A stretch of 64,000 nt of DNA from Moniliella sp. 'wahieum'. Lineage: Eukaryota. The notes under the pieces are model-generated. The model saw nothing but the letters and a program-made list of their open reading frames with translations, did no database searches and was not told the DNA's origin. The DNA lies in the NCBI GenBank assembly GCA_003971905.1, contig RSEE01000003.1, positions 992,001 to 1,056,000 on the forward strand. The letters are read 5' to 3'. Positions 3,465 to 64,000 of the stretch are shown here, one piece after another; within the stretch, counting starts at the first letter, position 1; every line of letters begins with the position of its first letter. The position numbers and the translations under genes are program-made.

Positions 3465-4736
3465 ATGCCCCCTCCCAGCAGCACCCTCCGCCAGCGCCTC
3501 GTCCCCCCACTGCCGACGCTGCCGACACCGCCGACCCCACCGACACCGCCGACCCCACCGACACCGCCGACCCCACCGATACCACCGACGCCTCCGTGCC
3601 AGAGCCCTCCACAAACCCCCTCCTCTGCTCCTACGCCCAGCTGCCCGCCTGGGCCCAAGAGAACGCCTTCATCCGCCACGGCCACCGCCGCCCTGGCCCC
3701 GACCCAGGCAAGGCTCCCTCCCAGCCCGACGACCACGGCTCGATTGCCAAGTGTGTTCGCTCCATCTATGCCTACTGGCACAATGAGACGGTCAACATCC
3801 ACACCCATCTGTGGGGCGCCGTCGTCATCATCACCCTCGTCCTCCTCCACTTCTGCGGCTTCCATCACCACATCCTCTCTGAGGCTTTCGACATGGGGCC
3901 AGATGCCGATGCGGCCCGTCTGGCAGCCGTGGCAGCCGCCATGAGCAACCGAAGTTCGTCTGCCCCTCCGCGTCCTGCTCCGCGCCCCCAGCCCCACACG
4001 CGACATGCCCCCGCGCCCGCCCTCGCTGAGCGACAAGCTTGCCTTCACTTCCTTTTACGTCGGCGCTTTCATTTGTCTTGGTTTTAGCGCTACCTTCCAT
4101 ACACTCACCGCACACTCGCACCGCGTCTCTAAACTCAGCAACCGTCTCGACTACATTGGTATTGTCTGCATGATTGTAGGCTCTTACCTGCCTGCATTGC
4201 ACTACGGCTTCCACTGCCACCCCAACCTTGAACTGCTCTATGGCGGCAGCGTCTCCCTCCTGGGCGCTGTCGCAATCTACCTCGTTGCCCAAGAACGTTA
4301 CGCCACTTTGGAGTACCGCACCTTGCGCACCAACATTTTCCTTGCGCTCGGCCTCAGCGCGGTGGTGCCCACTGCCCACCTCATGTCCATGTACGGCGTA
4401 GCGACGGTGTCGCACACGATGGGCATGTACCACATCATGCTTTCCGGTGCGCTCTACGTCGTGGGCGCCTTGACGTACCTTGTGCGCTTCCCCGAACGTG
4501 TCTGGCCAGGCCGGTTCGATTACATCGGTGCGTCCCACCAGCTCTTTCACATTGCCATCCTGCTCGCCGCCTTGGCCCATTACGTTGCTCTTCGCCGTGG
4601 CTACACGTTTTGGCATACCGTTCAAGTCGGCCTCTTGGGCGATGCGGCCCAAGCGCTCGACTTGCCCATCAAAGAGGGCGATGAGGCCACAGTGCACGCC
4701 GTTTGTCAGACGTTGGAACGGTGGCGGCGCATGTGA
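3465..4736 (+). CDS. PAQR / hemolysin-III family (IZH/adiponectin-receptor-like) membrane protein
   Basis: Family motifs LPAWAQENAFI, HNETVNIHTH, SATFHTLTAHS, RLDYIGI and RFPERVWPGRFDYIGASHQLFH. Split across three frames by apparent indels (about 3500-3620 and 4010-4030). Confidence 0.9.
3519..3590 (+). repeat. 18-bp coding tandem repeat (GCCGACCCCACCGACACC, about 4 copies)
   Basis: Directly visible. Encodes TADPTD or PTPPTP units, depending on frame, in the PAQR N-terminus. Confidence 0.85.
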
Positions 4737-5001: not shown

Positions 5002-5965
5002 TCACGGTGCCCATGCACCAAGCACATCCTCTGGCGACAGGGGTTGCACACTGGGCAGTTGATCCAACTGGGGCGCTGGTGCTGGTGCTGTGCCTGTGCT
5101 TGTGTCGGCACGGCGCCCACTAAAGCCAAGCCCAGCAGACCCACCTTGCACCCGTCGTCCCCTCGGCTTACCCGACGGCACAACTAACGAGCCAGCCAAG
5201 TCAGGCCCCGTCGTACCAAAGTCCACTAGCGCCCCAAATTCCAATTCCGTCCCGGCATCAACGACCGACGCAGCCACCTGGTCGCCCCCCGCACTCCTCG
5301 CGCTTTCGCCCGACGATGTCGTTCCCCTTGCCCCCCTGGCGGCACGGGACTGTCCCCATCAAGTGGCTCAATCGGTATGGTATCTTCCTCCTTCACCTGA
5401 CCCGAGAAGGGAGCCGCGGGCTCGACGACCTGAGCAGGCGGCGGAGGTTGCTCCGCAGCACCCGTGAAAAGCCGCTGCTTCGTCCTCGGGAGAAGGCGGG
5501 TCGTGGACCGATGGGGTACGTGTCGCCTCGGCCCCCACCGAAACGCGCGCCTCCGTCTCCTGTTCCTCTGTTTTCGAAGGTGAGTCAGGCCGGGAAGCGG
5601 ATGGCCCCGAGGCGTTGGAAGCGGGGGCGGCAGCTGGCTTCAAGCTGGCTGGCACCAAGGACGCCCGAGGTTGCTGGGACGCGGGGAGCGAGGTAGGCTT
5701 GGCCACCGGCGCCGGATGGGTGCAGGTGGATCAGGGGGGTGGTGGCAGGTGTGGATGCCGGGATGGAAGGCGAGGAAGCCAACGGCGCGAGAGACAACGC
5801 GAGCGACGACCTTCCATGCCACGCCTTGCCCGGGTGCAACACCGAGTAGAAGCTGGTGGAGCGCCTTCGGGCGTAGGGATCGGCCGCCGTCGCCGTCGCC
5901 GTCGTCGACGACGCTGAGGTGGGCGACGGTCGGGAACGATGGCGCAGTTGGTCCAACCAGCCCAT
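5002..5965 (-). CDS. Hypothetical low-complexity Ser/Pro/Ala-rich protein (frameshifted)
   Basis: Chain of overlapping minus-strand ORFs (MGWLDQLRHRSRP..., KPTSLPASQQP..., ...PLSPEDVLGAWAP-stop) with coding-like composition. No recognisable domain. Confidence 0.35.
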
Positions 5966-7892
5966 CGAAGAGGATGCAGACGGAGCCAGAACACGTAGGG
6001 AGCCAAGGACAGGTGGTGTGAGGCCTGAGGAAAGGTTGGGTGTCAACATGTCAACCACGCCTCGGACTGAGCACGCACATCTACCTGACTAACTCCATTT
6101 GCAACTCTCCCCACCCGAGTAACCCAACACAGTCCTGACGCGCCTGACGGCTGACGGCTGACGCTGCCGCCTACGCTGAGCGCTCACGCTGAGGCTGAGC
6201 CAAGCAAGCGTGCGCGATTGGCCAATGGGGGGCAGAAGGGGGCAGATCCGAGCAAATCCCACAGCACGCTCCGCACAGCCCACCTCTGTCGGCACGAGAG
6301 ACCCCGGACCAGGGCCCCAAGTGGAGCTGTTGCGGTGGGTCCAGCATGGGGTCCGTGGAGTGGCCCAACCCTACTGCCCGTGTCCACGTCGTTGTGACAG
6401 TACCCAGGCCCAAGAGAGGAGGCCTTGAAGCTTGAGCTTTAGCGCCCCTGCAACACCTGGTCATATGTAGCGTAACCGGTAAGGTCTAAGGTGGCTTGTT
6501 TCGGCAAGCGCGGGTGTGGCCTGTGTGCATGTGGGCGCTGGCGGTGGGAGGCATTGGATTGATATGGATATGTGAGGGGGTACTGCTCGCGATCCTGGGC
6601 TCCGCAGGCCACACCAGTAATATACTGATGCTGTGGCGCTGTTGAGGATCAGCCCAGTGGTTTGTGTTGGAGGAGGGATGGGCAGCGGGAACTGGCCTGA
6701 GGCAACTGTGGTAAATGAGTCCATGGGGTGAATGATTCGCGCGCGCACGGTGTATCTGGCATTGGGACGGTTGTGTGGGCTGAATGATCGACTATCTGTG
6801 CAACAGAAGCCGGTGGTGACTGGCTCGCGCCTCCTTGTAAAAGACCAGAGGACAGGCAGTTGGTGGTATATTGCATTGCACATGAGCTACAGAGGCTAGA
6901 GAATATTCCTGCCAGCCAGGAAGGAATATTGCACGGAACAAACCAGAAGGTTCCGGACTTGGGCTACCGGCGCCACTACACCAGTGTGGCGTCACACTCC
7001 TTTTCCTTGCGGCGGATCTAGTGGAGAGGCCAAAATGGTTGAACGAAATGCTGGTGGGATAGTCGAATGGCTAGCCACTGGTCACTCCAGAGCAAGGAGC
7101 AGACGACAGGCCTCTCCCATCCTCCCCTTTGAAGTTGAGGCGTTCAAGTGCGAGTAGGAGGTGCCGGGGGTGCCGGTCCGTACTGAGTGTGGTCTGATTT
7201 CTGATTCGGCTGGCATGCTGACATGCATTTGACAGTCAGGTGACAGGTGATGACAGGTGACACACGTGTGGCACATGTGATGTCAAGTAAGTAGCCACTA
7301 GGAGTAACCATCAACATTAGCGTCCCGTGTCGCAATACGTGGCCGGTATAACCGGTAGCCATTAAACGTTACGCGCTAACCCAGCAGCCCCGAGCAGGCT
7401 CCAATCGGTTCCCCGCTTCTTCCGAAGTTCACATCGTTCAGAGGAGACGGCAGCGACGGTGCTCAATGCGGCCACACTGGTTCTTTGTTGGTGTCCCTCG
7501 GTTGGACCGGGCGAGCGGAGTTGGGCATTGCGACCCCCTGGCACATGAATCATTTCGAAACAGGCCCGGTTGCCCCCTAACGGAAACAGACGAGGGCTAG
7601 AGATAACTCGACCCCTCCGCGCTATCCCGGATAAGGACCGAGGGCATGCTTGCCCCCATCGGTTCGCTCGACAGCGGTGTAGCAGGGTGTGGCCTGGGCG
7701 AGGGCCCGGGCAGGGAAGAGGAGGGCCGAGGCTCGGCCCCGAGGAGCAGCCAACGGAGCAAGCAAATCACCGGGCGGAATGGATGGTTCCGCCGTCTTCA
7801 ACGTTCAATGTTCAACGTTCAACCCATCCGGCCGGCCTTTTGTTCCAACCGAATTGTTCTGTTTCCCAACGACCCAGTCGCTTGCCCCCATC

Positions 7893-8982
7893 ATGATGGG
7901 ACCTGCTGGATTTACGCGTCTTTTGTCGGCCATCTTTCGCCCGACGTGCGCGTTCGCGATCTCGAGGACGAGTTCGGACGCTATGGGGTACGTCGGCCGC
8001 TTGCTCGTTTCTGTACTACACTAACACCTCCCGTCGTCCTAATCAGCGCCTGGTTGATGTGCGCATCATGGGCCACGGCAACTTCGCATTTGTCGAGTTT
8101 GACGACCCTCGCGACGCTGACGATGCCGCGTGTATGTCCCCCCTCCCTTGTGCTGCAGCACCAGCTCTTTGTAACCTACTCCTAACCACTGCCTCGTCCC
8201 GCTTCGCAGGACTTGCACGGCCGCATGTTTATGGGCGACCGTTATTGTCGAGCCCGCTAAGCGCCCGCCTGGCCCGGCCGGGCCCGGCCGTGGGCCGCGC
8301 GGTGGCCCCCGTCGCCCCAGATTCCGTCTGTTCGTGAGCAACCTGCCCCCCGGCACGTCATGGCAGGACGTCAAGGATCTGGGACGCAAGTACGGCCATG
8401 TCCAGTTTGCCGACATTGATCCCTACCGTCGCGACGAGGGCATGTTGGAGTTTGAAACGCCTGAAGACCTGGAGGCAGCGTTGCGCATCGACGGAATGGT
8501 GCTCCGCGGTAACACGCTCCGTGCCGAGCCGGAAGACCCCTCGTTCCTGCCGCCTCCCACGCGCCGCTCGCACTCGCCGCGCCGCTCGAGGTCCCCCCTG
8601 CCACGCGATGGCAGGGAGCCTTCCCCCCACGGTTACCGCGACGACCGATACCGCGACGACCGATACCGCGACGACCGCTACCGTGATGACCGCTACCCTG
8701 ACGACCGGTACCGTGGCGAGCCCCCGTCTCGGGATCGTGCCGAGGGATACCCTCGTCCGAGCGGCCGCCCCGTGACGACCGCCCGCGATCGGTCTCTCCC
8801 CGCCCCGAAGCGGCGGTGGTGGAGAAGGGGAAACCCCTCCCACCTCTCTGCCCCCCGTGGCTGCACCGGAAGAAACGGAAGAGACGGGAGACAAGACGAC
8901 GGACAAGACTGCCGAAGAGCCTGCCGAGGAGCTTGCCAAGGAGCCTACCAACCAGCCTGCTGAAGAGCCGATTGAGGCGTAA
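7893..8982 (+). CDS. SR-family splicing factor with two RRMs (Srp2/SRSF-like)
   Basis: RRM1 reads FVGHLSPDVRVRDLEDEFGRYG, intron 7988-8046, then RLVDVRIMGHGNFAFVEFDDPRDADDA; second intron about 8132-8209. Pseudo-RRM2 has the SWQD.KD signature (SNLPPGTSWQDVKDLGRKYG). Arg/Ser- and Arg/Asp-rich tail. Confidence 0.85.
8630..8715 (+). repeat. 15-bp coding tandem repeat encoding (DDRYR)n
   Basis: GACGACCGATACCGC-like units, about 5 copies, in the SR protein tail. Confidence 0.85.
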
Positions 8983-13341: not shown

Positions 13342-14251
13342 GGTTCTCGTACTCGATACTCGCGAGCGAAGGCGCAGAGTGTGGTGGCGGACCGCCACTC
13401 TGGCCGGCGGAACCAATTGCCGGCCTGCCGTCTGCGATAGGCTGGTTAAAGTGCGCGTACGTAACTTTCGAGGCGCGTCGTGCTGGTTATGTAACGACGC
13501 CGGAATCGTCGACTTCCGCTTCTGTCTGAGTAAGATTCCGTCCCTTCGCTCACGCTCATCCCATACAGCACTGTCACACCCATTCGGTGATCGATGATCT
13601 GAATTTCCCTGTGTCCGACGTGCCTCCGTCTTGAGTTCGGGCGTGTGGATGATGGACACGCGTCACGCGTCACGACGTTCAACCGCATCGAATCGCCCAA
13701 CAGGCCATCACACATACGTCACACATGGCACACACAGAGCCGGAGCTGCACAAAAGTCTACACCTCCCTATACACCTTCTCCCAACCTTCCCATCCAACA
13801 CCCCTTGAAGCTTGGCGCTTGGCGCTGTTCGGCCCGTTTTGACGTCATCGACTTGTCCTGGGTCTACCGAGTACTCCACTCAGCGCATTCCGCAATACTC
13901 GTCATACTCAACCAACTCAACGGTGCGTTCGACTGAGTTGGATATAGCCGTGTTAAATAACTTCCTTTGTATCAGGCCGACGTAGGTGCGCGTCATCGAT
14001 CATCCGCCCCGATCATCATGCATGAGAACAATTCGTTGTCTCATTTGGCGCGCGGAGGCTTTTCGTGGCCAATGAAATACCAACACCGCCGGGCCAGCCA
14101 CGCTGCTTGTCATCGCAGCCCTGCTCGTCTGGTTCGCCCTTCGCTCCGTTTGCCTCCTTCGCCAACATTGGGACGTGCCGACAAGCGGACCTTTGAATCG
14201 CCCTCCTTGGTCCTCATCGTCCCCTTCCAACCAGCGCCGTGCTGACAAGCC

Positions 14252-17190: not shown

Positions 17191-17754
17191 GGTGATGGAG
17201 GCGGTGGGGTACTCAAACAGGACCCACTAGCACGAAAGGCAAAAAAAAGAGGCGGAATGACCAGGGCGGAATTTCAACCCTAGCTGGCTCGTGTGGGGGC
17301 TAGGACGACCGGCGGGCGAGTTGCCCGGTTGGATGTGCCACCTCCAGTCTGGACAGCCTCCCAAGAAACACAGATGGGCGCCCGCGTTCGGTGAGAGCAG
17401 CTTACGATGTGGTTCATTTCCTGCCTGCATCCTCTGTCTTCGCGCTCCGCGCGCACAAGTCAAGTCTGCCTCGGTTGCCCCGTTCGATGGCCACCGCCCC
17501 ACCCAGCTGGGGGCTATCCTAGTCGTAGAGTGGACAGTACAAAAGCGGCCAGCACTCGCGGACTCAGGCCACAAGGGCGGTGTGTCCATATCATACTTAG
17601 ATCACGCCGCCCGACCGCCTCTACGACCCCTCCTTCCAGCACAGAACTCTCATGGCACAACAATCATTGCACCGTGGGCAAACACATGGCCATCAGCGCA
17701 CTGACAACTGACAGCGCGGCGCGTCCCACCGGACAGAGCAAAGACGGCTAGCGC

Positions 17755-24660: not shown

Positions 24661-26211
24661 TCTTGTCAATCGCTGGGTTGCAGCGCTTCTTCTGCCTCAA
24701 TATCCAAGTCGAAATGGTCTTTGGTAACTCTTTGGGACTTGGTTCGTACGAGGAAGCCACAGTGGTCCTCACCGTAATGTGCCAGCACATGTTCTTCATT
24801 GCCCATATACAGGCGTCGTCGATGAACCTCATCGTCTCATCAAATATGTTTTGCTTTTTTGTTGATTCGCCTCTTTTGACTTTTTCACTCTTTCTTTCTC
24901 TCCTTTTTTCCTTACTACCCCTGTGGGTGTTCATACAGTTGAATCAGGCATTTTGGCACCATTGTGCCTTGATCTACCTTATGCCTCTATCGATGTGATG
25001 GTCTTCATATAGACGTTCCTTCGTTTTAGCCATCTCTGCGGTTCATGTCTGATCGCATTTTTCTCTGTCTGTTCAAGTATGTCATCATATAATAGTCATC
25101 GGCATCATGCCCACTGCACCATGAAATCGCAGTCTGGGCAACAGAGGAAAGCTCTCTTTCTGCTGCAGATGGATAGAACGGGGAGGAGGGGGTTTTGCCA
25201 TCCGGGGAAGTGTGAGCTAACCCCCCGTCACAGGAAGTAGGTCTGCATAGAGGCGTAGGGTGAGTACACCGGGGAAGCAGTTCTGTAACGGCTAACTGCT
25301 GTCGTGGTCTCGGACGGGATGAATTGGAATGATTTAAGCTGCGCGAGACTTCTTCAACTCCGGATGCAGCGACCAGAATTGGGCTTCTGAGTGTCTACCG
25401 TTATTGGGATTGAATACGACAGGTACAAGTGCACACCTGCGTGCTCCTCCTCTCCCTTGTGCGAGGAAACAGTCTTCGTGACCAGCAATATATCCGCCCG
25501 AACGCTCCCTCCTTCTCCCCGGTAACGTCGGCTATATATTAAAAGACCCTTCTATTCATAGCCTCCTATAACTTCCTCAGAACCACCGCATCCTCCAGTC
25601 TCCTCCCCAGTCCTTCAACACACTGTTCCTGTTTGCACAACTATTGTGGATCATCAGGGCTCCAGAGGTCTCTTCGATCCCATCAAAAGACACCCTTCTC
25701 GTGCCCCCCCCCACCATCCGAAACAAAACCCCCGAAGCTGGGCGGGGAGAGCATATCACAGAACCACATCGGCCCAGAGGGAGAAGGTGCGCCGGGTCTT
25801 CGTAGCGATGGGCGAGGGCGTGATGGCGCACTGCGCTGTTACAGACCTGGTATACAGGTGAGATGTAGCCCTGCTCTAGCATGTGGTTTTGAAGGAAGCC
25901 AAAGAAGCTGAACCCCATTTACAGTGTGGGGGAGAGCAGAAGAGTGCTTTTGTGGGTCCGCAGTATACCGGTGTCAATATCACGATACCTGAGCATGATC
26001 GACGCATGATGCATGATGCATGATTAATGATTAATGATTGGGGCCCCGTGCATGCTCCGCATTTCGCGGACCACGGGGCGGAATGAACAGCGGAATAAAG
26101 GGCCCATCGCTTGCTGGAGCGCGCTGGAGCTGGCGTGTGGCAAGCAATTCGCCACAATCGCAACCAACCACCACCTCCCCGTCCCGTCCAGGACTTCGAT
26201 TGCTGCCCTCC

Positions 26212-27326
26212 ATGGAAGATCCCGCCGAAATCGCAGCCCTTGCGCAGGAGTTTATCGGCACCCTTGACAATGTCCCCCAAGAGGTTGACTTTCTTCTTGG
26301 CGAAATCCGCGAGAAGGACAAGCGCATCGCTGACATGGTGCCTCGTATTGCCCGCTTCGAGTCCCAACTGCGCGACTTGCTGACCAAGGGCGGCACTCAA
26401 ATTTCAAACGAGGCGGTCACGCTACCTGATGTCGACCGCGTCAAGGCCGAACGTCTGGAGAAGAAAGTTGCGGACAGCAATGCGCGCATAGCCGAACTCT
26501 CGTCTCAAAAGCAGCATCTGGCTCTCCAGCTCTGGCGCCTCATTCACCGCCATACTCAACGCCTTGCCATCGAGCGCAAGAAGATCGCACCACATGTGCT
26601 AGAGGGGCTGATCGAGCCCCCACTTTTGCCTAACGCCAACCCCCGTGGTACACCGACACCCATCACATCAATTGTGCCGGCTTTGGCAGCAGCCTCAGGT
26701 GGTGGACAACCCGGCGCCGAACGCCGTAAAAGCGCGGCTGCGGTACCCCTGGCTGCCTCCAGCCAGAGAACCTCGGCCAATGCACCTACGAAGGTACGCC
26801 AAGGAACACCTACATCAGAGCAGGGCGGACAGGCGGGGCGAGCCAATTCACCCTCGGTCCGGATTGCCGGACGCAAACGACCATCCAACATGAACCTTGT
26901 CTCCCCCCCACCCGATTCGGCGGCGCCAATAGCCAAAGATCCTCTCTTCCTGTTGCCAGCCGGTCGGGGACGCCGGCTGCTCGGGGTACAACACCACGCG
27001 AACGCCGCTCAGCACAACCAGGGGGTGCCCCTGCCCGCCCCTCAGGTGGCCAGCAAGATGGCGATGAGGACGCTCTTTACTGCTTTTGCCAGCGTGTGTC
27101 TTACGGCGATGATGATGATGGGTGTGATGGGGAAGATTGCAAGTACGAATGGTTTCACATCAGTTGTGTCGGTCTCTCGAACCCGTTGCCGGACACTTGG
27201 TACTGTGACGAGTGCAAGGCGAAGTTAGAAAAGGAGCGGGGGGCCCACCCAAGAAAAAGAAGAAGACTGATTGAGTCGGTTTATTCTCTCCGTTTCTCTC
27301 GCCGGTATCACCATCCACATTTGTAG
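26212..27326 (+). CDS. ING-family chromatin reader (Yng2/Pho23-like) with C-terminal PHD finger
   Basis: ING N-terminal domain EFIGTLDNVPQEVDFLLGEIREKD. PHD finger YCFCQRVSYG...GCDGEDCKYEWFHISCVGL...WYCDEC. Frameshift between the two; exact stop uncertain. Confidence 0.88.
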
Positions 27327-30300
27327 CCACACTGTATCGTTGTACCACTAATCGTTTCTGCCCTATGTTGACTTGTTGATGAAATAAGGGGATGTGTAAT
27401 GGAGGTACAAAATCTGCTATATGTGCCAAGGAGCGTGTATCAAAGCTAGAAGCGCGTGTACTGATAACCTCAACCACAAGTTAGTTGACTTTTCTGATCG
27501 CGCACTGCACCCGTACGAAGTTTCATGACGTTCTCCGGGGCTATTCTCTCGGCAAAGGTCATCTCTATTGCGTCCTGGAACGCGATGATGACTGCAAACG
27601 TCAATGAATGAGTTGTTGGCTTCTTCACACTGTATTACCGGTTGCTTGGTACGGAAACTAGAGTGTCCATCCCTTTGACCGAATCACCTTCCTCGATGTC
27701 TTGTGCACTCCTCATGGAAGGCGTATTCCATTCCTCTTCTTTTTCGCACAAGCTCTAGAAGGACCTTCCCCTCCAGCAAAAGGCAAGAACAGATCCCCAA
27801 CCAAGTCCCATGGTTTCCGTCATTATAGGAGGGGCGGGGGGTACATCCCCCCCCTTGAATGTATATCCCCAAGTGAAGGAGAGCGACCATCAAAATGTAT
27901 GGCTGCCTCACATGTGGTTTTGAGAATCAGAAAGGTAAACACGCGTTGGTCATGGAAACACTGCTTGCTCCTCCTGGCGGGTTGTGAGGTGGCCTTCTGA
28001 CCGCACGATTCGTCCAAGCTGCATATGGTTTCCTGAAGAGCTGATGGTCGACGTCCTTTGAGCACACTATAGGATAGCATTGTTCCGGGATAAAAACGTA
28101 GTCCGCGGAGACAAGCAGTTATAGTGAACTACACCCCGTCCTATAGCCTCAGTACTACTGGTGCATACCCACACCAGCAAAGGTGCCCAAAAATGGGGGA
28201 AGCAGCAGTGCTAATAGAGGAAATGGAATCTCCCCACTGCCTCGCACGTGCCGATGTGATCGATCAATAGCAAACCGACTGAACCATTAGCCCACGATTC
28301 GCCGCAACGGCTGATGTCAATCCCTTACATCGCATCTTTGTCCAACAACACTTCCGTCCTCTCATGTGGAATTCGTGTTGCTCTGACCCTGGGATCACAA
28401 TGACTCCGGTATACACCGTAGCGGAAAACATAATATAGTATGGTCTGCTCCTCCTTACTTGCTTGTATACACTTCTTCCTCTCTAATTCCTTCACCCGCT
28501 CTATGACTTGCCCGATCACTAGTCACTGCACGTTTCTGTGTCCTACACACGCTGATACTCTTTCTCTAATATATATATTGTCGGCACTCTCTATAGTATA
28601 GCCACGGTGGACAAGGTGTCGCTTCACTGATTGCGCTAAAAACATCAGTGCACTCGATGTGGAATATAAGCTCGATGTTGAATGTATGGCGTCATGATTA
28701 TGAGACTGCAGCGAAGAAAGGGCTCTGCAAATCCATCGCGGTGTGACCCGGAAAAGCATGAATAAAAGCAAAACCCCCTTGAAGTAATTCGGCAAGAACG
28801 CCCATCATCGACCATCCCTATGCACGAAGTATATTCTGTGCAACATTTGCCGATACATGTCGATGGAGAGTTAGGCCGAGAGGTTGCATGCGCCACATAC
28901 AATCGGTATGGTGATGTTGCGGGGTTTGATAGAGATTGCGCCCACTGGGTGCTGCCGAAGACACTAATAAGTCGCAAGAGCCTATTTGTTCTCTCAGAAT
29001 CTCAGCCGAACAGACCGCCAACATTCCCCCTGAGGCCAGAGGTCAGGCCTGAGGGACTAGGCGTCTGAGGGCCTGAGAGATATAGTTGTGTTCAGTACGT
29101 AGAGGCTACGGTAAACTATGAGACGCCGGGGACAAGGAGCTGGGACATGTGGGCACGAGCCATCAAATCCAAATGTGTGCACAAGCTTCATTGCATGATG
29201 TACGCGGGAGCATGTATGATGGCGTGTGGTTACGAGTAAACTATATATCGTGCCCCGCTATCATATCTAATAAACGTTTAAACGCGTGCAACAGACGGTC
29301 GTTTTAAGAGTGCAGACTGTGTTTCAGGATGCCACTGTCAATGGGAAGATGTGGAGGACGTGGTATCCAAGAGAGGGGTAACCGGTAAAGGGTATAAGAA
29401 GAATAGGCCGACCTTATAATAGAGCCAAGCGTAGAATGCGGCGCAGGTTGAACGCCTGGGCGGGTCAGAAGGGGTTTGTCTCAGAGCCATGCCGAAAGGA
29501 GGTTCCACGAAGAGGCACCACCATAAGACGGATAGTATGCAGGCCACAAGCTGCCAGGTATGAGTACGATAAAGGGAGTCATGCTAGGCATGTGGTCCAA
29601 CAGAGCCCCACTTGGTTGGTATGGAAAAACGAAACGATGAGGGGTGGTGGACGTATGGCGTGAAGGTCATGTCTCAAGATGGCTCTCTCTTCAACATATA
29701 GAAGACGCTCCCTCCCAGTCACCTCGTGCAAGAGGGATAGGTCCCTTCGGACGCGGGGGTGGTGGGGAGAGGGAGGTACTAATGGCCGGGTTGGCCAGGC
29801 ATAATATTCCTGGCTCTGGACTAACCCAAGGCGGTATTGGCCTGAATATACACGGCGTATATATAAGCCTTGCGATTGAGGAAAGACAGAGAGGACGAAG
29901 ACATCATTCATGATTCTCATTATACGATACGCATTAAAAATTATGGCTGAAAAGGTAGCAGAACCGAACAGACTGGGCATATCATTGCATCTCTTCTCTC
30001 CCACCTTATCGTATGGCCCAACATTCCCTTCAGTGCCTACTCAGGAGACTCTCATACTCAGTTTTGCGCCCAACACCCTCCTTGGCCAGTCTCTGTCTGA
30101 CCTTTTCTTCCGTCAAATATCTCTCCTACTACTAAATGTTAAAATCGTTTCAGCGTTGTTTGTGGGTTTTCGTATAGGTTTTCAATAGTCGAACGTTTTA
30201 GCCACACAACACACACAGTGCACGTTCTATAGCTTATTAAGAGATCCATGAGGGGAGCGCCAAAGGCTTGTGCGCAGCGAAGAAAAATCGGGCATATCGG

Positions 30301-30499
30301 CCATATACGTGGGAGTCAGGCTATAGCAATAAACGCAGCAAACTCTTCAAACAGGAGGGGCGTGTGCCTAGTGCCTCCGCGTCTGCTCCACAGTAGCGAG
30401 CGATGCGTCGGGGGGCAAGGAGACTTTGGCGCGTCCACCGTGTGTGTGACCTTTAAAAGGTACTCGGGCCTGTGGAGGTACACGAAACAAGAGCAGATG

Positions 30500-32870
30500 G
30501 TGCATGCTAAGTGCATGCTGAGCGCTGAGCTTAAGCGATGTGCGTCACACACCTCTCTTGCTTCCCTTGCTTCTCCCCCCACACGGATCGGGGGCGCATG
30601 TGGTGCAAGTCCTGCTGCAAATACAGTAGTCAAACACCCGTATATGCCAGGCACCCGCACGTATCCATTGTGCGCTTTTACAGGAGGGTGCAGCCGCGTC
30701 GTCAAGCTTCACATTTTCTATAGCTTCAAGCTTCAAGCTTCAAGCTTCAAGAGCTAGCTGTGGTGCTATAGAGCGCACCTAGGTAGATTTTCAAGCCTCA
30801 GGCAAGCCTCAGGCTGAGCCTCAAGCTCCTCAAGGGCCTCAAGCTCACAAGCCTGTTGGGTGTTGGGGGGGGGTGGGACAGCCTGAGCGCCTGAGGACTG
30901 AGCGCCCTGAGCGCAGTGAGGCGGTGAGGCGGTGAGGCGTGTGACATGTGAGGCCTGAGGCTCAGTCGGTCAGCGCGATGCCCTGCTAGCACTGCAGCAA
31001 TGGCGGCAGCAGCAGCCGAAACTTGCCGACCGCCTCGTAGTTTGGTCTCAGTTTCTCCGCACCCTTGTTCCTCTCGCTCCAGGGTTCCCGGAGGGGCCTG
31101 TGGTCCTGAGGCCTGATGCATGATGCATGATGCAGGATGCAGGATGCATGACAATGCCATGTGACATGCATGACAGCTAAGCTAGTTATATCGATGATCG
31201 AGTTACTCCGCCAATCTGGCTGCTGCATGCATTATGCACGTGTCGGACGTTCCCAACCAGCTTTTGGCCCGACAACTCCTACTAAACAGCACCATCCACC
31301 ACAACACCAATGTATGTCTCCACACACGCACCAGACATAGGAAGTTCGACAGATATGTTCTGGTAGCTGTGCTTTCCCAGAGCCTCGAGCATAAGCGACG
31401 TGCATAATACACAGTATCCAGTACCGACTGAATTCTCAGTCTGAGTACTCACGGAGTACTGCGAGAGTATGAGTCTGAAGCTTGATGCATGATGCATGCC
31501 AATTGAGTGAATTGATGATCAAATACGTAGTGCTTAAAGCTTAATGGCCGATGTCAATTACGGTGATCGATTACTCGTGTACCAGTGATCGAGTGATCGA
31601 TAATCGATAGTCGGCAACCGGCAACCATCGATCGGCGGTCGGTCTTTGCCGGCTCGATGACGCCGACGAGCGAAAGGCAACAACGACACAGTGTGACATG
31701 TGGCGGACTTGGCGAGGGTTCAATCCACTAGCCGCAGTAGGCCACAGTCCATCCTGCTCAGCAGCTCAGCCGCTCATCGCGTACGGTACTACTTGGGCGC
31801 GCCCACCACTGACATGTTGAGCCACTGGGTCTGAGCCTGAGGCCGCCTGAGGCCTGAGTGTAAGTTGAACGTAACGCCGAGGCAGACGCGCTGACGCGCT
31901 GACGCGCTGACGCTCCACGCTCTTCCGTTTCCTTTGATGTGGTGCATTGGAAGAGTGGATGTAAACTCCGTATACGTTTAGTACTGAACGTTGAACCGTT
32001 GAACCTTGAAGCTTGAAGCTTGAATGAAACCGTTGCAGGAGGAAGGGCCACACAAAGTTTTAAAGGTATTGACCAAGTGGGCCAACCGGCGGCCCCCGCA
32101 ATTGCTCTAAAGTGTCTGCTGAAAAGGAAATAGGCGTAAGATCAATGATCGATGGCCCCTCTCAAGCTTCAAGTGAACGTGTAACCGGCTTCACACTGTC
32201 TCTCCATTCCGTATCTGCATGTGGGCCCAAATACGTCGTCACTCAGTTTCAATTCCGCTCAGTGGCAACTCCCATAGCCCCTCCAGTGCTAGCAGCTTCG
32301 ACAGGCGCCAATGGAGTTGAACGTTGAACGTTGAACGTTGCACGTTGAACAACGGGCAAATTCTTCAGATGCACACTGTTGCACACCACGGAGCTGTTGA
32401 TGTGCAATTGCAGACAATTGATCGATGACGCGCGGGCGCGACTCGGTAGATCTCAGATGGCAGATCTCAGACCTTCAGAGCGGCCCTAGGTGCGTCGCAT
32501 GCCACATGTCACACGCCACCTCGGTGTACATCATGCATCAGAATCCATCCGCAGATCTCAAACGTAGCCATCATGCATCATGCATCACATTATCACACGC
32601 CACACGTCGGATCGCGTCATACTGACCAGCGGCCGTACGAGTACTGACCAACGACAGCAGAGTAGTAGTCTAGTGGCCGTACATAGAATGATGCATGATG
32701 CATGATGTTCCGTAGCATTGCAAATATCATAATCATGCATCATCCATCATGCCATGTCCTCAAACGCCGCGCCAGCAAAGTTCGGTCTCACCCTTCCTTG
32801 CCGGGGCGACTGGGGCCCCCCGGGTAGGAACGATGGGGGCACTGCTTCTTAGATCTCCGATCTCAGGGGT
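30500..32870. repeat. Island of 7-bp-periodic palindromic-hexamer micro-arrays
   Basis: (AAGCTTC)n 30722-30751; ACATGT-G-AGGCCT-G 30944-30957; AGGCCT-G-(ATGCAT-G)n 31109-31150; AAGCTT-G-ATGCAT-G-ATGCAT 31478-31497; AGTACT-G-AACGTT-G...AAGCTT-G 31980-32022; (AACGTTG)n 32316-32350; AGATCT-C at 32448 and 32462. Confidence 0.85.
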
Positions 32871-33039
32871 CCAACGTGACGCATGAGGCAAGAACCGATG
32901 GGGTGGGAGGGGCGATGCCGAAGGCCAAGGCTCAAAGCCAGTGTTGCATGATGAAGGTAATTCTTCCGGCGCTTGCGGGCAGCAGTACAACGGTACCCAA
33001 TCCCGTTCTCTACGTAGTGGCTAACATTGGCCAACCATT

Positions 33040-33048
33040 GTATAAAAG
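33040..33048 (+). promoter_or_regulatory. Putative TATA box of the MFS transporter gene
   Basis: TATAAAAG about 185 bp upstream of the ATG at 33225, followed by a CT-rich leader. Confidence 0.4.
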
Positions 33049-33224
33049 AGGCCCTCTTCGCTCATGGGGCTTAGTCTTGTTCCACGTTCACGCCCTCCAT
33101 CTTCCCTTCCATCGAGCACAACTAATTCGTCCCCCGGCACCGCTCTCGTTACGCGCAGTTCTGGAATCCCACTCTCAGTGCCACATCTTTCCATTTCACT
33201 ACTTCTGTCGACTCTCTGCCTACC

Positions 33225-35084
33225 ATGGTGCTAAAAAAGCACACCAACATCCGCGCCGACTTTTTCCCCGGCAAGGAGCAATACTCTACAACAGATGCCG
33301 GCCATGAGGCAACGGCTGAGGCAGATACCCGTCTGTATCTCCTAGTATTGATCAAATCCCTGGGACCACGCTTAGCCCAGAGATCATGAAGGAGGTATCG
33401 GAGGGCAAAATCATCCTTGTCGATTGGGATGGGCCGGACGACCCTGAGAATCCCATGAACTGGTCCCACGGCAAAAAGTGGATCAACACTAGTCTCCTCT
33501 GTGCCATGTGCCTCTTTATTGGTTTGGCCACTGCCGCCTACGGCTCTGGCGTGTCAAGAATGTGCAAGGAACTCCATGCTTGTGCGTATTTTCTCTCTGT
33601 TTGATGTTCCTGGGCAGCTGTTCTAATCCTGGAATACCCACAGCCATCGAACTGGGCCGTCTGGGTTTTACTGTGTTCAACGTCGCATTTGCATTGGTAC
33701 GTATTCCCGTCGGTGTTCTGGCCCGGAGTGAGTTTCTGACAATCCTTCGTGGTGGCAGGTTCCTCCCATCCTTGGCCCCGTGTCCGAATTCGTCGGTGCG
33801 CAACCTGTCTACTTGATTGTTATGCTGGCTTTGTCATCTGGTTCATTTCCCTCTTTGAGGCCCAGAACATTTGGACCATCGTCATTGGTCGATTCTTCTC
33901 GGGCGTCTTTGGTGCAGCCGGAACGACAATCATTCCCGGTACACTTGCATCAATCTGGCGGCCTAACGAGATTGGGCTGCCTGTCGCTCTCTTCACTCTT
34001 GTCGCTGTACTGGGTACAACTGCTTCACCTCTATATGCTGGATACATCGATGCTCACAACCTGGGTGGCGTGCGATCGAGTGGATCCAAATGGCGATCAA
34101 TGGCACTGTGCTTATTCTCGAGATCATCTTCCTGCGCGAGCCCCGTGGCAGTGCCCTTCTCTCCCGTCGGGCCAAGAAGCTACGCAAGGAGACTGGAGAT
34201 GAACGCTACCGTTCCCCCGACGAATTGGAAACACCCAGCCTCAGGGAGCTTCTCAAGGTCTCGACGACTCGCGCGGCTGTAATGATTGTGAAAGAGCCTG
34301 TCGTCCTCTTCTTCTCTCTCTGGCTGGCATACGTGTGGAGTTTGATCTTTGCCCTCTTCAGTGCATCCCAATCGCCTTCTCCACTATCCGCGGCTGGGGC
34401 GAGGGCAACACCGGTTTGGCGTACATTGGCCCAATTCTTGGCACCTTTATTGGTTGGGTCTTCCTCTTCCACGACTCGTATCTCTATCAGAAGTCCGCAG
34501 ACGCTCATGGCGGCCACGCTATTCCCGAGGTTCGCTTGTACTACGGTGCCGCTGGTGGTATCGTGTGCACCATCGGCATGTTCATCTTTTCCTTTACGGC
34601 CCCCTTCACATGGGTGCATTGGATCGCGCCCGAGATTGGCCTTGTCCTTCTTCTGATCGGAATTGTGTGGATTTTCCAATCAGTGCAGGCCTACCTGACC
34701 GACGCGTACGGCGAATCGAGTGCCTCTGCCATTGGCGCTCAAGGTTTCATCCGTAACCTAATGGCCGCTAGCTTCCCGCTGTTTACCAACCAGATGTTCA
34801 ACAACATGGGGTACCAATACGCTGGTCTCTTGCTCAGTCTTCTTATCGCTATTGCCATCCCCCTCCCCTTCATCCTGATTTGGAAGGGTGAGACCATCCG
34901 TGCTCGCTCCCCCTACGCTGCTGTCCAGACGGGGACTGCGTTGGAGGCCCTGTTCGTGGCGCTCACCGTGCCAAGATCGATCGTCAGGGCGAAAAGGAAG
35001 CCGATTCTCCTGCCTCTTCGACGGACATCGAAAGCACCCCCGTGGAGGAGACAAAGGACGTTGGAAACGCCTGCCCAGCCGTAA
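33225..35084 (+). CDS. MFS drug:H+ antiporter, DHA1 family
   Basis: DHA1 signature VDWDGPDDPENPMNWSHGKKW; LAPLSEFVG-like motif; IVIGRFFSGVFG; YLTDAYGESSASAIGAQGFIRNLMAASFPLFTNQMF. Introns near 33585-33770 and several frameshifts. Confidence 0.9.
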
Positions 35085-57106: not shown

Positions 57107-58973
57107 ATGGCCGCCCGTCCGCACACTCGCTCCGTGTCCGAATCGTCCTTTGGCGAGTTCGCCGCGGCCCCCTCCCACGCCGCCTCCAGCTTCTCCCCCA
57201 TCCCCGAGCCCCATGCGGCTCTTGCACCTGCGCCCGCCCCACCCGGCAGCGACTCGGACTTTGATCCCGCCACATCTGGCTTCAGCGACTTTGTCGCCGC
57301 CCCGGCCGCCGCCGATGCAGCCGACCCTGACTGGGGCTCCTTCCACACTGTCTTGCCCACGCCTCCTGCGCCCCCCAGCCCGCCCATCCGCGATCTGCGG
57401 CCCGTCGAAGCTCGGTTGCGGCTCAAGGAGCGCAACGACGCAGCGGGTCAGTCGGCTGACCCAGAATACCACTCCTCTGGCCTTTATGGCCAGCAGCTTG
57501 CCGACAATGCTCATGCCCAGGCCTCGCACTTGCCCATTCCTCTCGCATCTCATCCCGATGGGGGCGGCACCCCCCCATTCGGCCAACAACCCCCGTCCGA
57601 TTCAAGTTGGTCAGGTAGCCTTTGGCGTTCGTTTGGCAACCTCAATCTACGCCAGATTGGCGGCCAGGCCCGCGGAGCGGCCGGTGAGGCTTGGAGCCAT
57701 CTCCCCCGTCCCCACCTTCCCACCGGCCTGTTTGACATGACAGCCGACGACCCCGAGTATCAAGCGTACCAGCAAACTCTCCCGGTCTCCTCCAAAGGAC
57801 CCTCGCCTTCCCCTTCTCCGGGCCCCGTGCGTCACCACCCCCCAACCGCATCCGCCCCTCTTCCGCCCAAGGCGATGCCCATCCTTTCCGGCGCGCCGGG
57901 TTTCAATGTGGCCCAAGACCGGTTTGAGAACCAAAATTGGAACCGGGGTGGGTGGACGTTACCCACCCATCAGGCCTCGCCCACGCCTACCCCGCCTTCG
58001 ACCTCTACGTCCGCGTTGCCTGCACGCGATGCGCAAGCTCTTTCTTCCCACTCTTCTCTCTCGTCTGCCAATCCCACTGCGGTTGACCCACTGGAACGCG
58101 TGCGCGTCTTGACCGGCGCCTCGCCCCAGGCTGCTGCCGAGTCGCGCTTTGCCCATCGTCGCGCTCAGGCGGTCACGCTGCATGGAAGGTACGCCGACAC
58201 GCGGCAGCTAGTCCGTCCTGGTCTGGCCGGCCAATTGCAGGGTGTCCTTCCGGCTCGTCTGCAGCTCGGTCGCGGCTGGCGCTTGGTCTACTCGACGGAC
58301 CAACATGGGATCAGTCTGCAAACCTTGTACGATCGGGTAGGACGAGCGATGAGTCAAACTTCCGCCTCGCGTTCGGCTGCGCGGGAAGGATGGTTGCGCG
58401 GTGCGTCGTCGGCTACCGCATCGGCCTTGGCCGCGGACGAGGGACCGAGCAGCTTGTCAACGTCTGCTACGCTCGCGCGAAGCAACCCAAGCAGCTGCCC
58501 AGGCGGCCGACAAAATGTCCCGCTCAGGACTGGCCATGCACGATGCCGGTCTGATTCTTGCGGTGCAGGATGCCGAAGGCAACGTGTTTGGTGCCTTTCT
58601 CAATGAGCCCATCAAGCCCCAGCCGCATTACTTTGGTTCGGGCCAATCGTTCCTATGGAAGACGGTCAAGGTTCCGGGTCGGAGTAGTGGCGAGGGCGTA
58701 TTTGAGGCGGGACGCATGCTCAAACTCTTTCCGTGGGTAGGGAGGAACATGTACGCCTGTTTGGCCCAAGGCTCTAGCCTCGCCTTTGGTGGAGGCCCAG
58801 ATGGACGCTATGGCCTGTGGCTGGACGACCAGCTGGAGAATGGCGTGTCGGATGTGTCAGTCACGTTTGACAACGACCCCTTGGCTGACACGACTGCCTT
58901 TCCGGCAGGGGAGCGCAAGGAGGAGAAATTTGAGTGCATCGCTCTCGAGGTGTGGGCAGTGGGCGTTGACTAA
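57107..58973 (+). CDS. OXR1: Oxidation resistance protein 1 (TLDc domain)
   Basis: LPARLQLGRGWRLVYSTDQHGISLQTLY; VQDAEGNVFGAFLNE...YFGSGQSFLWK; LAFGGGPDGRYGLWLD; TFDNDPL; FECIALEVWAVG-stop. Frameshift near 58470. Confidence 0.9.
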
Positions 58974-61900
58974 CAAAACGCATTGAATGGAACACCATGC
59001 TGCATAACGCCTGAGGCCTGAAGGATTGGTCGATGACCACGTTGAGTATACAGTCTACAGTTAGTATGGACGATCACTTCGACTGGCTCTTGAGTCTGCT
59101 CCTTTGGCTGTGGGAGAATGCGGCTGACCATTCTACTCGCCCCCCGTGCGCCCCAAGCCTCATGCGCATGCGGCGCCCGACGGGGTGAACGACAAACTTA
59201 TCACACTGACTCCTCTGGTTCGTACACCGCACAAGTGTTTTCGATGCAGCGCCAGCGTTGTAGGCATATGTAGTAGGAAAGCGTTGCCAAAAGCCACGCA
59301 AGAACAAAAGTCAACGAGACGGAAAGTCGTAATGTCATTCGTTGAAGACCATCATTAACAATCATTCAAACTACGCTTGGCTTTCCTCCATGTCGGCAGC
59401 CAAGTGACCCGAGCGCACCAACAAAGGCACATCTCCAGATAGCTCCATAGTATTCTCTACCATTTTAGCCGCCATTTCCCGCCCAGCAAGTGCACCTGGG
59501 GTCAAATGTCACCGCTTTTAAGCACATCGTGGTCGGCACTCGCACCCATTCCAAGTTTGGCATGTTGTGCGAGGCCAGGCGGAAGGCAATCCTCAACATT
59601 GCTCACATCATGTGCATCATGGAGGATACCCAGAAATGTTCTCATGAGAAGAGCCGGCACCGCTTGGGGAGAAGGAAATGGGATGGGGGAACAAGGACAG
59701 GCGTACGGACGCATTGTTGCAGAGTGATAAGAATTTTCCTTCTGCTCTGTCTACGACACTCTCTGCCTAATGGGTCTCCCCCACCAATCGGGTTCTTTTG
59801 GATGAGAGACAGCACTTCTTCGTCTCTCGGTTCCCTGTTTACTATAGACCCAAACCTTTAAACTACTGGGAATGTGACAAGATCGCCACTGGTGTACCGG
59901 AGAGAGGGGAGACACTCAACAGCTCGGTTCCTGCTGTTTCTCCTCCCCTAGTTGTGCATACCATCACGTCAGGCAGGTACCATATGCCACAGATATATGT
60001 GAACGACTACCACAAAAATGTTTGACTAATGGAAGGAGAACTGCCTGAAGAGTCTTATGCATCTCAGATCTCACGAGAGAAGATTTATCGACGTTCGACG
60101 TCCACCGTCGTTCAACGTTCAACGTTAATCGCTCACATGGCTCCTAATAGGTGTCTACCCCACTCATTCACATCCACTTGTGCGCTGTATCTCTGTTGGT
60201 TAGTCTGGTTGCTTGCTAAGGAAGGACATGAAAGGTAGAAAGTAAGAAACGATCCTCCCCTTTCCAGAAAGAGAGTAGCTTTCGTAACGCAACGTCAGGG
60301 TGGTGCTGCCTTACGGCCCAGCCCGGCTAGGCCTTGCCCGTATGTCCACCTAGGCACAGTAAGGAAAAGCTGGGCCCAGGTCTCCCAGCACCCCCGAAAG
60401 AGGGAAAAGGGAAGTCGTGGAAAGCCCTGTGCCAAGAGCAACCATTCTCGTAGCACGTGCTTGTCGGGAACAGACCCACTTGGTCACCGTTTGTCACCAA
60501 CTTGACTCTGGCCCCCTGATTTGTTCTAGACCCTGTTTCCCCCTTTGACTATGCTCCCCTTCTTCTTCCGTGTGACTCAGGTCGCATGTTCTCTTCTTCG
60601 AGGCATGTATACCTGACCCTCCTTTCCATACGATGAACATGTTCCTCATCCTTTCCCCCATCGCGAGTTCCTGTTAGAGCGGGCGGTAAACAGCCGTCGG
60701 GGTGCAAGGAAGGGAAAGGGCGAGGACAAGACTTACATCCCGATCGTACGAGAGGAATATAGAGTCGGTTGCATGGAGGGAAAGCAGCAACGTCTGCCCG
60801 TCAAGGTTCTGATGCGATGTGGCAGTTCCCCTCCGCATGCGCTTGCCCAAGGGGAAGGCGAAGCGCTTATTGGTCGCGAATCTGGCGTTTGGAGGAACCA
60901 GGCTCTTCTCACTTGTCCCACCGGGTGGGAGAGGGCGGCGGCCAAACTTACCGGGTTAAACGGGCTTCCATTTGGTGGGAGGCACTTGGAAGCAAACATC
61001 AAAGGGAGACGGACGGAAGCACAACTTCAATTGAGAACGAGGCAAAGGCCAGACCCGTCTTGTCCATTCCAACATCCATGTCAGATGTAGTAGGACTTTT
61101 GCGATAGCCTTATCCTTTTCCCGATTCTTCGCTTTGGAAGAAAAGATCCCATCAGGTGGCACAGAACCCACTCTGCGATGTTACAGGCGAAGGCAAGTCG
61201 TACCAGTTGGAAGGGGGCGGGGGTGTGGTAACCAGGACGGTGCCGACGACACATACAATGGCGCGTAGCCATGCAGAGGAAAACAGATTAACCTCAGCAC
61301 TCTGTTCGACTTGTAGGAAAGGGGGAGCGTTAGCAGAGGCAGGAGACCACAAAGTTCGTAACTGCGCATGCGAGAGTCACTCCCTCCGCTATGTCAGCTA
61401 GTGGCTCTGAGGGGTTTGAATTTGTTGTGTACATCGATGTTGGAGCGATCATCCGTGCCAAAGGGCCCTCAACCGTCCAACTTGTTGTTTAGTCCAGTGA
61501 CTAGTGGCGGCCAACAACTAGCTGTCTCCGGTGGCCGCGAGGCGTGCGTCCACTCCCGTTTTTCAGGGTGGGGGAAGCTTTTTGGCAAGGCAAAGGCGAG
61601 CCTACGCACCGGAGACACCGACACAACATTCCTTGGGCCCCTACGCTATGCAACAGTGTCAATAAGGCCGACTCATGCCGATAGCTCAATGCCAATGTCG
61701 AAGGGGGCTGAGGCCAAGCCTGAGAGAGGGGTGGTGAGGACAGCGTCCTTCTCGAGACCTCGACGGCTTCAGCTCCAGGCGGGTAGCTCCTAGTGGGGAG
61801 GGGAAGGAAGGAGGAAAGTTCCACTGAAACTGGACATCTGGTCGACTCGACGACCAAGCCGTTGATGGATGGTGAGATCGTGAGAGGAGCCAGAAGAGAC

Positions 61901-62029
61901 TCCGACTCCGACCAAAGCAAGCAATCTCTGGTGGTCTAGACCCCCTAACCCTTTTGATTATCAAAATACACCCAATGTATGCTCTGTTCCTGGAGTACCG
62001 ATAGTACTTTCAGGACTGTGATGCATGTT

Positions 62030-63740: not shown

Positions 63741-63907
63741 GGATCGATGATTCCATGATAAATACTAGTCACACTGGGAGTGCTCCGCAATTGCCAACAT
63801 CGCCAATTGCTACCAAATTCAATTGTAGTATTGTAGGGCGCACGCTGGGCGCGGGGGCGCTGGGTCCTAGCCAACGAACAACCGCATCTCCTAGGCCTTG
63901 AAAAAAC

Positions 63908-63990
63908 TAACCTTAGACCTTAGGCCCTTGGTCCTTAGCCCCTAGCCCCTAGCGTCTTAGCCCTTAGCGCCGTTAGCACCTTAGCCCTTA
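63908..63990. repeat. Degenerate CCTTAGC/CCCTAGC tandem repeat at the window end
   Basis: ccttagc ccctagc ccctagc gtcttagc ccttagc gccgttagc accttagc cctta read directly. Confidence 0.7.
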
Positions 63991-64000
63991 TAATAATAGT

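Follow-up and report, generated by a model that had tools for sequence, protein, structure and literature searches.

Palindromic heptamer arrays in intergenic DNA of Moniliella sp. 'wahieum' may represent excision footprints of a cut-and-paste transposon

Introduction

Cut-and-paste DNA transposons of the hAT, Transib, RAG, and MULE groups form hairpins on the DNA flanking the excised element, and the end joining that follows leaves footprints, according to the sections of PMC5499845 that treat excision. The footprints of Ac/Ds in Candida albicans take the form of P-nucleotide palindromes, and two joining products dominate among them, with 35 and 18 of 128 clones, in the part of PMC5873905 that describes them. 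In the present study, we describe a family of short palindromic repeats in and around positions 30500-32870 (the flagged interval) of a 64,000-nucleotide stretch of the genome of Moniliella sp. 'wahieum' (assembly GCA_003971905.1, contig RSEE01000003.1, positions 992,001 to 1,056,000; the whole stretch is hereafter called the window), which we take, with some confidence, to be footprints of the same general kind.

The segment duplicated at the sites of these repeats is 7 bp long, and duplications of this length have precedents in Basidiomycota: the portion of PMC12730594 devoted to such elements lists hAT7 in Pucciniales and Kyakuja, a member of the KDZ group, in Agaricomycotina, the latter having 5'-CA..TG-3' termini without inverted repeats. 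Full-text literature searches retrieved no description of palindromic heptamer arrays of the kind reported here, nor of excision scars that build tandem arrays, which agrees with the statement in an initial annotation of this DNA, made from the sequence alone, that no element of this form was known.

Results

Palindromic heptamers are flanked by TGA or TCA

All window statistics given below refer to this one stretch, which has a G+C content of 57.7%, and the comparison outside it is with control DNA. With period 7 there were 51 exact tandem runs of at least 14 nt, whereas periods 8 and 9 had 7 and 3, respectively. In 21 of the period-7 runs, the unit was made up of a 6-bp palindrome and one extra base, compared with a chance of about 11% for a random unit by our own arithmetic. 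The palindrome had the form A....T in 20 of these 21 runs, and the seventh base was G or C in 18 of those 20, just as the initial annotation had proposed for the arrays as a whole; the exceptions were CTGCAG+G at 63039, ATCGAT+A at 31596, and AGGCCT+A at 46064. The array positions that it gave were found again in the window, while AGTACT at 31980 had to be dropped as a unit because there is no TSA to its left, where TSA denotes the triplets TGA and TCA (S being G or C).

When 10-mers of the form TSA-N4-TSA were set against the 16/256 baseline, the four central bases proved palindromic in 70 of 115 (7.2 expected), at 50 separate loci, of which 36 were single units. Fifteen of the 16 possible cores are in use, not 14 as first read, with AAATTT present at 26397 and 40923 and ATATAT alone absent from the window. 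All 64 flanking triplets were tried, and only TGA and TCA gave enrichment: these two flank 46 palindromic versus 26 non-palindromic loci, compared with 104 versus 1468 (6.6%) for the remaining triplets pooled. The control sample comprised 120 metagenome stretches (528 kb), each with an (AAGCTTC)3 array, and in these the N4 was palindromic in 37 of 576 TSA-N4-TSA words when the AGCT core was excluded. Since this fraction, 6.4%, lies at the baseline, the palindromic excess in the window is real, specific to TSA, and not general to DNA that bears (AAGCTTC)n arrays.

A few eukaryote-like metagenome contigs give hints of the rule. One of 8.8 kb (L060), which encodes Hira and alcohol dehydrogenase, shows at 5335-5480 three AAGCTT units that pass into AAATTT and then into AACGTT plus AAGCT, with a TCAGATCTCA unit 130 bp from this mixed array, and the mixed array hints at a second eukaryote sharing the same repeat rule. 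Two eukaryote-like contigs (L064 and L021) give weaker hints of the rule, and another contig (L038) resembles a generic GAAGCT-rich repeat.

In keeping with the intergenic character attributed to the arrays in the initial annotation, the units, hereafter also called scars, are not equally dense in coding DNA. Of 39 perfect loci, 10 lie inside the union of the long open reading frames (ORFs), though this union makes up 68% of the window, and by our own arithmetic the density is about 6 times greater outside long ORFs (29 loci in ~20 kb) than inside them (10 loci in ~44 kb). Intact scars occupy ~34 of ~725 non-ORF TSA sites. Beside the 39 perfect loci stand 40 independent loci with one violation of the rule, and a count of decayed windows gave 74 with one violation (7.5 expected) and 223 with two (85.5 expected). 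The near-equal numbers of intact and decayed copies fit a steady gain of units combined with neutral decay.

The unit reflects a 7-bp duplication centred on TSA

The basic unit can be written as [TSAxy]y'x'[TSAxy], that is, two direct copies of 5 bases and, between them, 2 bases that are reverse-complementary to the adjoining pair. Direct repeats of TSAxy across a 2-nt gap were counted 89 times (3.4 expected), the spacer being the reverse complement of xy in 72 of them, and the exact 12-mer thus occurs 72 times on both strands, whereas third-order Markov simulations predict 0.13-0.17. The self-complementarity ascribed to the arrays therefore holds for the core but not for a 10-bp palindrome, because the central base of the two triplets is equal on both sides in most units. 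Mixed TGA..TCA centres form a minority of 6 among the 36 single units, more than the 0.2 expected, and perfect 10-bp palindromes are thus uncommon.

The borders of the single units are informative about the length of the repeat. On the right, the direct repeat extends to 2 nt past the second TSA in 16 of the 36 and to 3 nt in one; on the left, 14 of the 36 have a repeat that starts 2 nt or more ahead of the first TSA. By chance, ~2 of 36 per side would show a 2-nt extension. The run length of the single units peaks at 12 nt (7+5). Whole nnTSAnn segments are also found in duplicate: without a spacer in three non-palindromic exact tandems (at 6150, 7193, and 17700), with one P nucleotide, or flank-complementary base, between the copies in 13 windows (0.05 expected), and with two P nucleotides in 4 windows (0.0 expected). 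With c and d standing for the two bases that follow the TSA, the gap-3 cases that start with d'c' carry as their third base the base preceding the first TSA in 9 of 9 instances (0.6 expected). These whole repeats, this third base, and the enrichment of 4-nt palindromes only show that 7 bp around a central TSA were duplicated, the sole length that fits. A 7-bp duplication predicts the TSA plus 4-nt palindrome counted above (70 versus 7.2 expected).

Other lengths and routes were tried and rejected. A TSA-centred duplication of 5 bp predicts TSA plus a 2-nt palindrome, of which 10 were seen and 11.2 expected; gapless tandem copies of TSAxy were likewise near expectation (6 seen, 4.1 expected), and the base before TSA was co-duplicated in 9 of 9 cases. 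A duplication of 9 bp predicts TSA plus a 6-nt palindrome, seen once with 1.4 expected. A 3-bp duplication supplemented by bases from the transposon ends would demand a separate element for each core, and snap-back synthesis should require a loop for the fold-back, which these palindromes lack.

Stepwise undoing of the arrays removed 50 insertions, 25 of each mirror type, and left 34 ancestral TSA sites; the same procedure found 0-1 events in ten Markov simulations and 0-5 for eleven other centre triplets. Arrays with mixed cores, such as those at 30940 and 31105, reduce to one ancestral 7-base site that was hit twice. The ancestral sites modestly favour C at -3 and G at +3, the two ends of the 7-bp segment: the frequency was 44%, whereas the remaining non-ORF TSA sites gave 28% (p=0.015), and the adjacent positions were without preference. 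These findings suggest that the target is the pseudo-palindrome C-n-T-S-A-n-G, equal in extent to the 7 bp. When fit to the duplication model was scored on runs, it was obtained for 44 of 180 runs of period 7, 16 of 34 of period 8, and 7 of 29 of period 9 (simulations: 0.45, 1.3, and 0.15), and within the flagged interval for 6 of 7 period-8 and 3 of 4 period-9 runs. The 7-bp periodicity of the initial annotation is thus right for the heptamers but not as the sole period, since arrays of period 8 and 9 obey the same rule. The 5+2+5, 7+0+7, 7+1+7, and 7+2+7 structures, the restriction to TSA, and the intergenic location can all be read directly from the DNA.

Arrays in the flagged interval

The arrays of the flagged interval, none of which has a strand, are as follows.

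30517-30530: [GCTGAGC]x2 with the AGCGCT core.
30702-30751: a single TCAAGCTTCA unit, then (AAGCTTC)x4.3 at 30722-30751, ancestral site CT-TCA-AG.
30819-30843: [CCTCAAG]CT[CCTCAAG]GG[CCTCAAG], a period-9 array with the full 7-bp duplication and 2-nt palindromic spacers, the left copy being the template of the first and the right copy that of the second.
30881-30939: CCTGAGC units with 1-2 nt spacers, then (GGTGAGG.C)x3; in these period-8 and period-9 arrays, the 7-bp duplication is supplemented by 1 or 2 P nucleotides.
30940-30960: TGTGACATGTGAGGCCTGAGG, with the unrelated cores CATG and GGCC, from a single ancestral site TG-TGA-GG hit twice; it decomposes into [TGTGA]CA[TGTGA] and [TGAGG]CC[TGAGG].
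31105-31151: an ATGCATG array, then ATGCAGG variant units, ancestral site CC-TGA-TG; it decomposes into [CCTGA]GG[CCTGA] and (TGATG.CA)n.
31476-31498: one AAGCTT unit, then ATGCAT units.
31584-31609: [AGTGATC]G[AGTGATC], of period 8 (duplication plus 1 P nucleotide), then ATCGATA x2.
31845-31858: GCCTGAG x2 with the AGGCCT core.
31885-31913: (GCTGACG.C)x3.6, a period-8 array.
31985-32024: AACGTT units shading into AAGCTT units via AACCGTT and AACCTT.
32162-32171: a single TCAAGCTTCA unit, in which the direct repeat runs exactly 2 nt rightward.
32316-32350: an (AACGTTG)x5 array, ancestral site GT-TGA-AC.
32419-32471: a single TGATCGATGA unit and imperfect AGATCTC units.
32531-32742: four ATGCAT loci, namely a single unit at 32531, ATGCATC at 32569-32587, ATGCATG at 32688-32707, and a single unit at 32733.

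At 30793-30827, units of period 11 (AAGCCTCAGGC) consist of CCTCAGG copies spaced by CAAG and CTGAG.

The remainder of the window

The arrays of the remaining window, again without strand, are the following.

6134-6163: [CCTGACG]CG[CCTGACG], then exact 7-bp tandem copies (GCTGACG) with TGA central.
7193-7206: TCTGATT x2, an exact tandem duplication (14 bp) that has TGA in its centre and lacks palindromic bases.
7798-7823: AACGTTC units.
13657-13674: ACGCGTC x2.6.
17700-17713: ACTGACA x2, another exact tandem duplication (14 bp) with a central TGA.
26004-26039: an (ATGCATG)n array that gives way to (ATTAATG)n; the site at 26007 has the sequence [TGATG]CA[TGATG]CA[TGATT]AA[TGATT]AA[TGATT], that is, a G-to-T change followed by palindromic units copied from the changed base.
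60109-60126: AACGTTC x2.6.
62286-62343: ATCGATG x2, with [ACTGAGG]C[ACTGAGG] at 62326-62343.
62970-63027: ACTAGT units in both orientations, with the period-9 units AGTCATT.CT and CTTCACT.AG.
63141-63159: ACCGGTC x2.7.
63255-63268: ACTAGTC x2.
63629-63647: [CCTCAGC]G[CCTCAGC], a period-8 array.
63695-63729: an (AAGCTTC)x5 array, ancestral site CC-TCA-AG.

Two genes adjoin the flagged arrays.

26038-27323, + strand: a gene for an ING/PHD-type protein, whose 3' end (~27.3 kb) starts the gene-poor stretch with the flagged arrays.
33740-35081, + strand: a gene for an MFS transporter, in several ORF pieces, with the flagged arrays ~0.9-3.2 kb upstream.

Most arrays are contained in two segments of unusual length, 27300-33700 (~6.4 kb) and 58970-64000 (~5 kb), in which no ORF of coding character and no Pfam hit was found and the G+C content is reduced to 0.48-0.54. 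The AAATTT locus at 26397 is a TCAAATTTCA unit with the 2-nt extension, situated in the stop-to-stop ORF of the ING gene and inside the span of the ING-domain match; it probably lies in an intron. At the window end (63911-63990), units of 7-8 bp based on CCTTAGC and CCCTAGC, with TTAG or CTAG centres, look faintly like telomere repeats.

As to the other contents of the window, neither tRNA genes nor Rfam RNAs were found. The relatives closest to the transportin ORF at 342-2987 (- strand) are 56-58% identical and belong to the Ustilaginomycotina genera Tilletiaria, Violaceomyces, Thecaphora, Ustilago, and Malassezia, so that the basidiomycete origin presumed in the initial annotation is correct. 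A gene resembling haem-dependent oxidative N-demethylase (PF11927; 38412-39372, - strand) is split over three ORFs in differing frames, which could reflect introns or frameshifts. In-frame coding repeats of 9/18 bp (CACCGCCGA type) at 3508-3597 and of 15 bp (TACCGCGACGACCGA) at 8634-8713 are unrelated to the TSA units.

Discussion

The findings of the present study are probably best explained by a cut-and-paste DNA transposon (or a transposon family) whose excision left footprints here and which is itself absent from the window; the transposon, its hairpins, and the order of events are what we infer from the scars. The element would insert at a target approximating C-n-T-S-A-n-G and duplicate 7 bp. 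At excision, its transposase would leave closed hairpins on both flanks, the nick falling exactly at the element border, and host enzymes might then nick each hairpin 0-3 nt off the tip, thereby creating P nucleotides, which are the reverse complement of the flank end. If end joining mostly kept one overhang and ligated it to the opposite flank's recessed strand, the main product would be ab-TSA-cd-d'c'-TSA-cd, a net gain of 7 bp with a new A-cd-d'c'-T palindrome. The geometry of this product would correspond to both hairpins being nicked 2-3 nt 3' of the tip, with the mirror choice yielding the other observed form; offsets of 4-5 nt would yield the minority TGA..TCA units, and unequal offsets the +8 and +9 forms. 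Because each event would double the target, re-insertion and excision could lengthen the arrays, as could slippage, and a point change in cd followed by a further event would generate a new palindromic core. The hairpin model with P nucleotides is proposed because the scars combine a duplication of fixed length at a pseudo-palindromic target with flank-complementary bases that follow without a spacer, which together form an established signature of transposons that insert by a staggered cut and excise through hairpins on their flanks. A retained target-site duplication, as expected of transposons that form hairpins on their flanks, is present in the nnTSAnn repeats with spacers of 0, 1, or 2 nt, and the flank-complementary gap-2 spacers described above occur in both mirror types in equal number. 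The suggestion in the initial annotation that the arrays arise by a template-switching or repair process can accordingly be kept in its second half, with repair joined to target-site duplication and P nucleotides, while template switching and generic slippage drop out.

Comparison with known systems shows where the scars conform and where they depart. Like the hairpin-type footprints of Ac/Ds, Hermes, Transib, and MULE and the coding joints of RAG, they combine a kept duplication with spacer-free flank-complementary insertions of 1-3 nt, and like the footprints covered in the relevant sections of PMC5499845 and PMC5873905, they show one or two dominant joining products per host. Unlike those footprints, the scars have a 7-bp, TSA-centred duplication, are frequent and stacked in tandem arrays, and are known from scars alone. 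The chemistry of hAT elements predicts odd-centred palindromes, whereas the main form here is even. A hAT element of the Ac/Ds type, with its 8-bp duplication and 1-nt offset, was rejected as the source because the duplication is 7 bp and the palindromes are even, without a central complemented base; as the main route, a model with the Ac-type 1-nt offset gave 5 matches (0.97 expected), compared with 72 for the model without offset. With Transib and RAG, the scars would share a hairpin exactly at the element border, and they agree in even P-nucleotide palindromes and short P tracts, but the target-site duplication of Transib and RAG is 5 bp and thus differs from the 7 bp seen here. hAT7 and Kyakuja have the 7-bp duplication and belong to the same phylum as the organism of the window, while length alone is no proof of membership; both were described from other subphyla, neither was found in the window, and the text on them in PMC12730594 includes neither a target consensus nor the excision chemistry. 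A preprint in which Kyakuja is mentioned is likewise silent on mechanism.

Several observations weigh against an origin by transposon excision. A search of the window for inverted-repeat elements with 12-nt inverted ends and a 3-, 5-, 7-, 8-, or 9-bp duplication returned array artefacts only, scans of 137 ORFs from the gene-poor stretches and of 11 long ORFs detected no Pfam transposase domain, and the window contains no dispersed repeats besides the arrays. The product in which both overhangs are kept was not seen in any case, nor was the form ab-TSA-cd-d'-b-TSA-cd (0.23 expected). The reason for the dominance of one joining product has to be assumed. Of the 36 single units, 10 lack the 2-nt extension on either side, and for the C/G preference at +/-3, p was no lower than 0.015 with four positions tested. 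A 7-mer that matches the target is present in the period-11 units at 30793-30827, but their spacers are not explained by simple P nucleotides, and in the TTAGC-type units at 63911-63990 the spacers break the flank-complement rule. Arrays of 4-5 identical units could have been formed by slippage alone. Finally, the combination of a 7-bp duplication, a TSA-centred target, and offset-free hairpins is not documented for any superfamily in the portions of the cited literature that deal with target sites and excision.

One alternative is that the host itself makes and repairs staggered, hairpin-ended breaks of 7 bp at C-n-T-S-A-n-G, by means of a domesticated transposase or a nuclease with a site preference, without any mobile element. 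The scars fix the geometry of breakage and repair and not the presence of an element, and neither an element nor a transposase nor a dispersed repeat is present in the window; decayed copies beside intact ones moreover indicate a long-lasting process. We nevertheless regard this alternative as unlikely, because a hairpin break at a single site would add P nucleotides without duplicating 7 bp, whereas the duplication calls for a staggered cut that is filled in, as results from strand transfer in the reactions set out in parts of PMC5499845, and because the window ORFs that were scanned include no candidate gene.

Another possibility is that the arrays are quasi-palindromic heptamer microsatellites, in which slipped-strand hairpins speed expansion and template switching restores the palindrome. 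Units repeated identically up to 5 times would be natural under such a process, two of five arrays fold slightly better than their shuffles (z -2.1 to -2.8), and slippage probably does contribute to array growth. The slippage microsatellites of the metagenome control, such as (AAGCTTC)n, also consist of 7-bp tandem units, with AAGCTTC identical to that of the window. However, the borders of the 113 control seed arrays fall in every phase, without a TSA border signature, and no other core is enriched beside them (the 6.4% given above), whereas in the window the borders keep to TSA +/- 2 nt and almost every core is represented. Expansion aided by hairpins would also leave unexplained the 5-nt repeat with its 2-nt inverted spacer, the sharp borders of single units, the restriction to TGA and TCA among 64 triplets, the 7+1+7 and 7+2+7 forms, which are not built of palindromic heptamers, and the mixed-core arrays derived from one site. 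Folding energies are also small: as single-stranded DNA, the five arrays reached -3.6 to -9.0 kcal/mol, with z from -0.1 to -2.8 versus shuffles. As the main origin of the arrays, this process therefore seems quite improbable, and the hairpins or cruciforms envisaged in the initial annotation find little backing in energies of this size and in the minority status of perfect TGA..TCA palindromes.

It is also conceivable that the units are selected cis-elements, such as sites for dimeric proteins (as palindromes or TGA half-sites), cruciforms, or nucleosome-positioning DNA upstream of genes. Their concentration in intergenic DNA, including the stretch 0.9-3.2 kb upstream of the MFS transporter gene, would suit such a role, and many of the cores are palindromes of the type that dimeric factors would bind. 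No single sequence-specific protein would accept all of the 15 cores in use, however, and the symmetry is mainly that of direct repeats with an equal central base, perfect 10-bp palindromes being in the minority. Intact and decayed copies are similar in number, as under neutral turnover, the hairpin energies are weak, and depletion from ORFs would be expected anyway for insertions of 7-8 bp. Selection for a structural or protein-binding function, as raised in the initial annotation, consequently receives weak support, and we think it very unlikely to account for the arrays. That the arrays are assembly or sequencing artefacts is scarcely credible, because units of 10-35 bp lie well inside any read length, they occur in more than 50 independent places with differing cores while avoiding ORFs, and no artefact familiar to us yields flank-complementary insertions at TSA sites.

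The formation of excision footprints with P nucleotides is already well known as a mechanism; what appears new is the scale, the 7-bp TSA-centred target, and a palindromic repeat family of period 7 to 9. A bolder proposal, which we put forward as a possible but doubtful one, is that an unrecognised cut-and-paste element, or a version of it tamed by the host, is now or was recently highly active in this lineage of Ustilaginomycotina, duplicating 7 bp at C-n-T-S-A-n-G and forming RAG-like hairpins exactly at its border. Were this true, the scars would propagate themselves, as the target is doubled at every event, the resulting footprint microsatellites would rank among the main origins of intergenic insertions and would steadily make new palindromic sites in promoters, and the target, stagger, and chemistry of the element would have been read wholly from its scars.

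If the footprint reading by itself is right, an entire class of short tandem repeats in a fungal genome would be made by the repeated visits of a transposon and not by polymerase slippage, and the TSA-centred target, the 7-bp stagger, and the hairpin chemistry would be revealed by the scars alone. A rough estimate from the near-equal numbers of intact and once-hit copies suggests that the gain of a scar per TSA site is about as frequent as a single-base substitution, and at such a rate scars would account for a considerable part of the intergenic insertions. Upstream of genes, new 6-bp palindromes of any sequence would also keep arising as raw material for the sites of dimeric regulators, and the signature of an [nnTSAnn] duplication with flank-complementary bases could be searched for in other genomes in order to date and map transposon activity that has since been lost.

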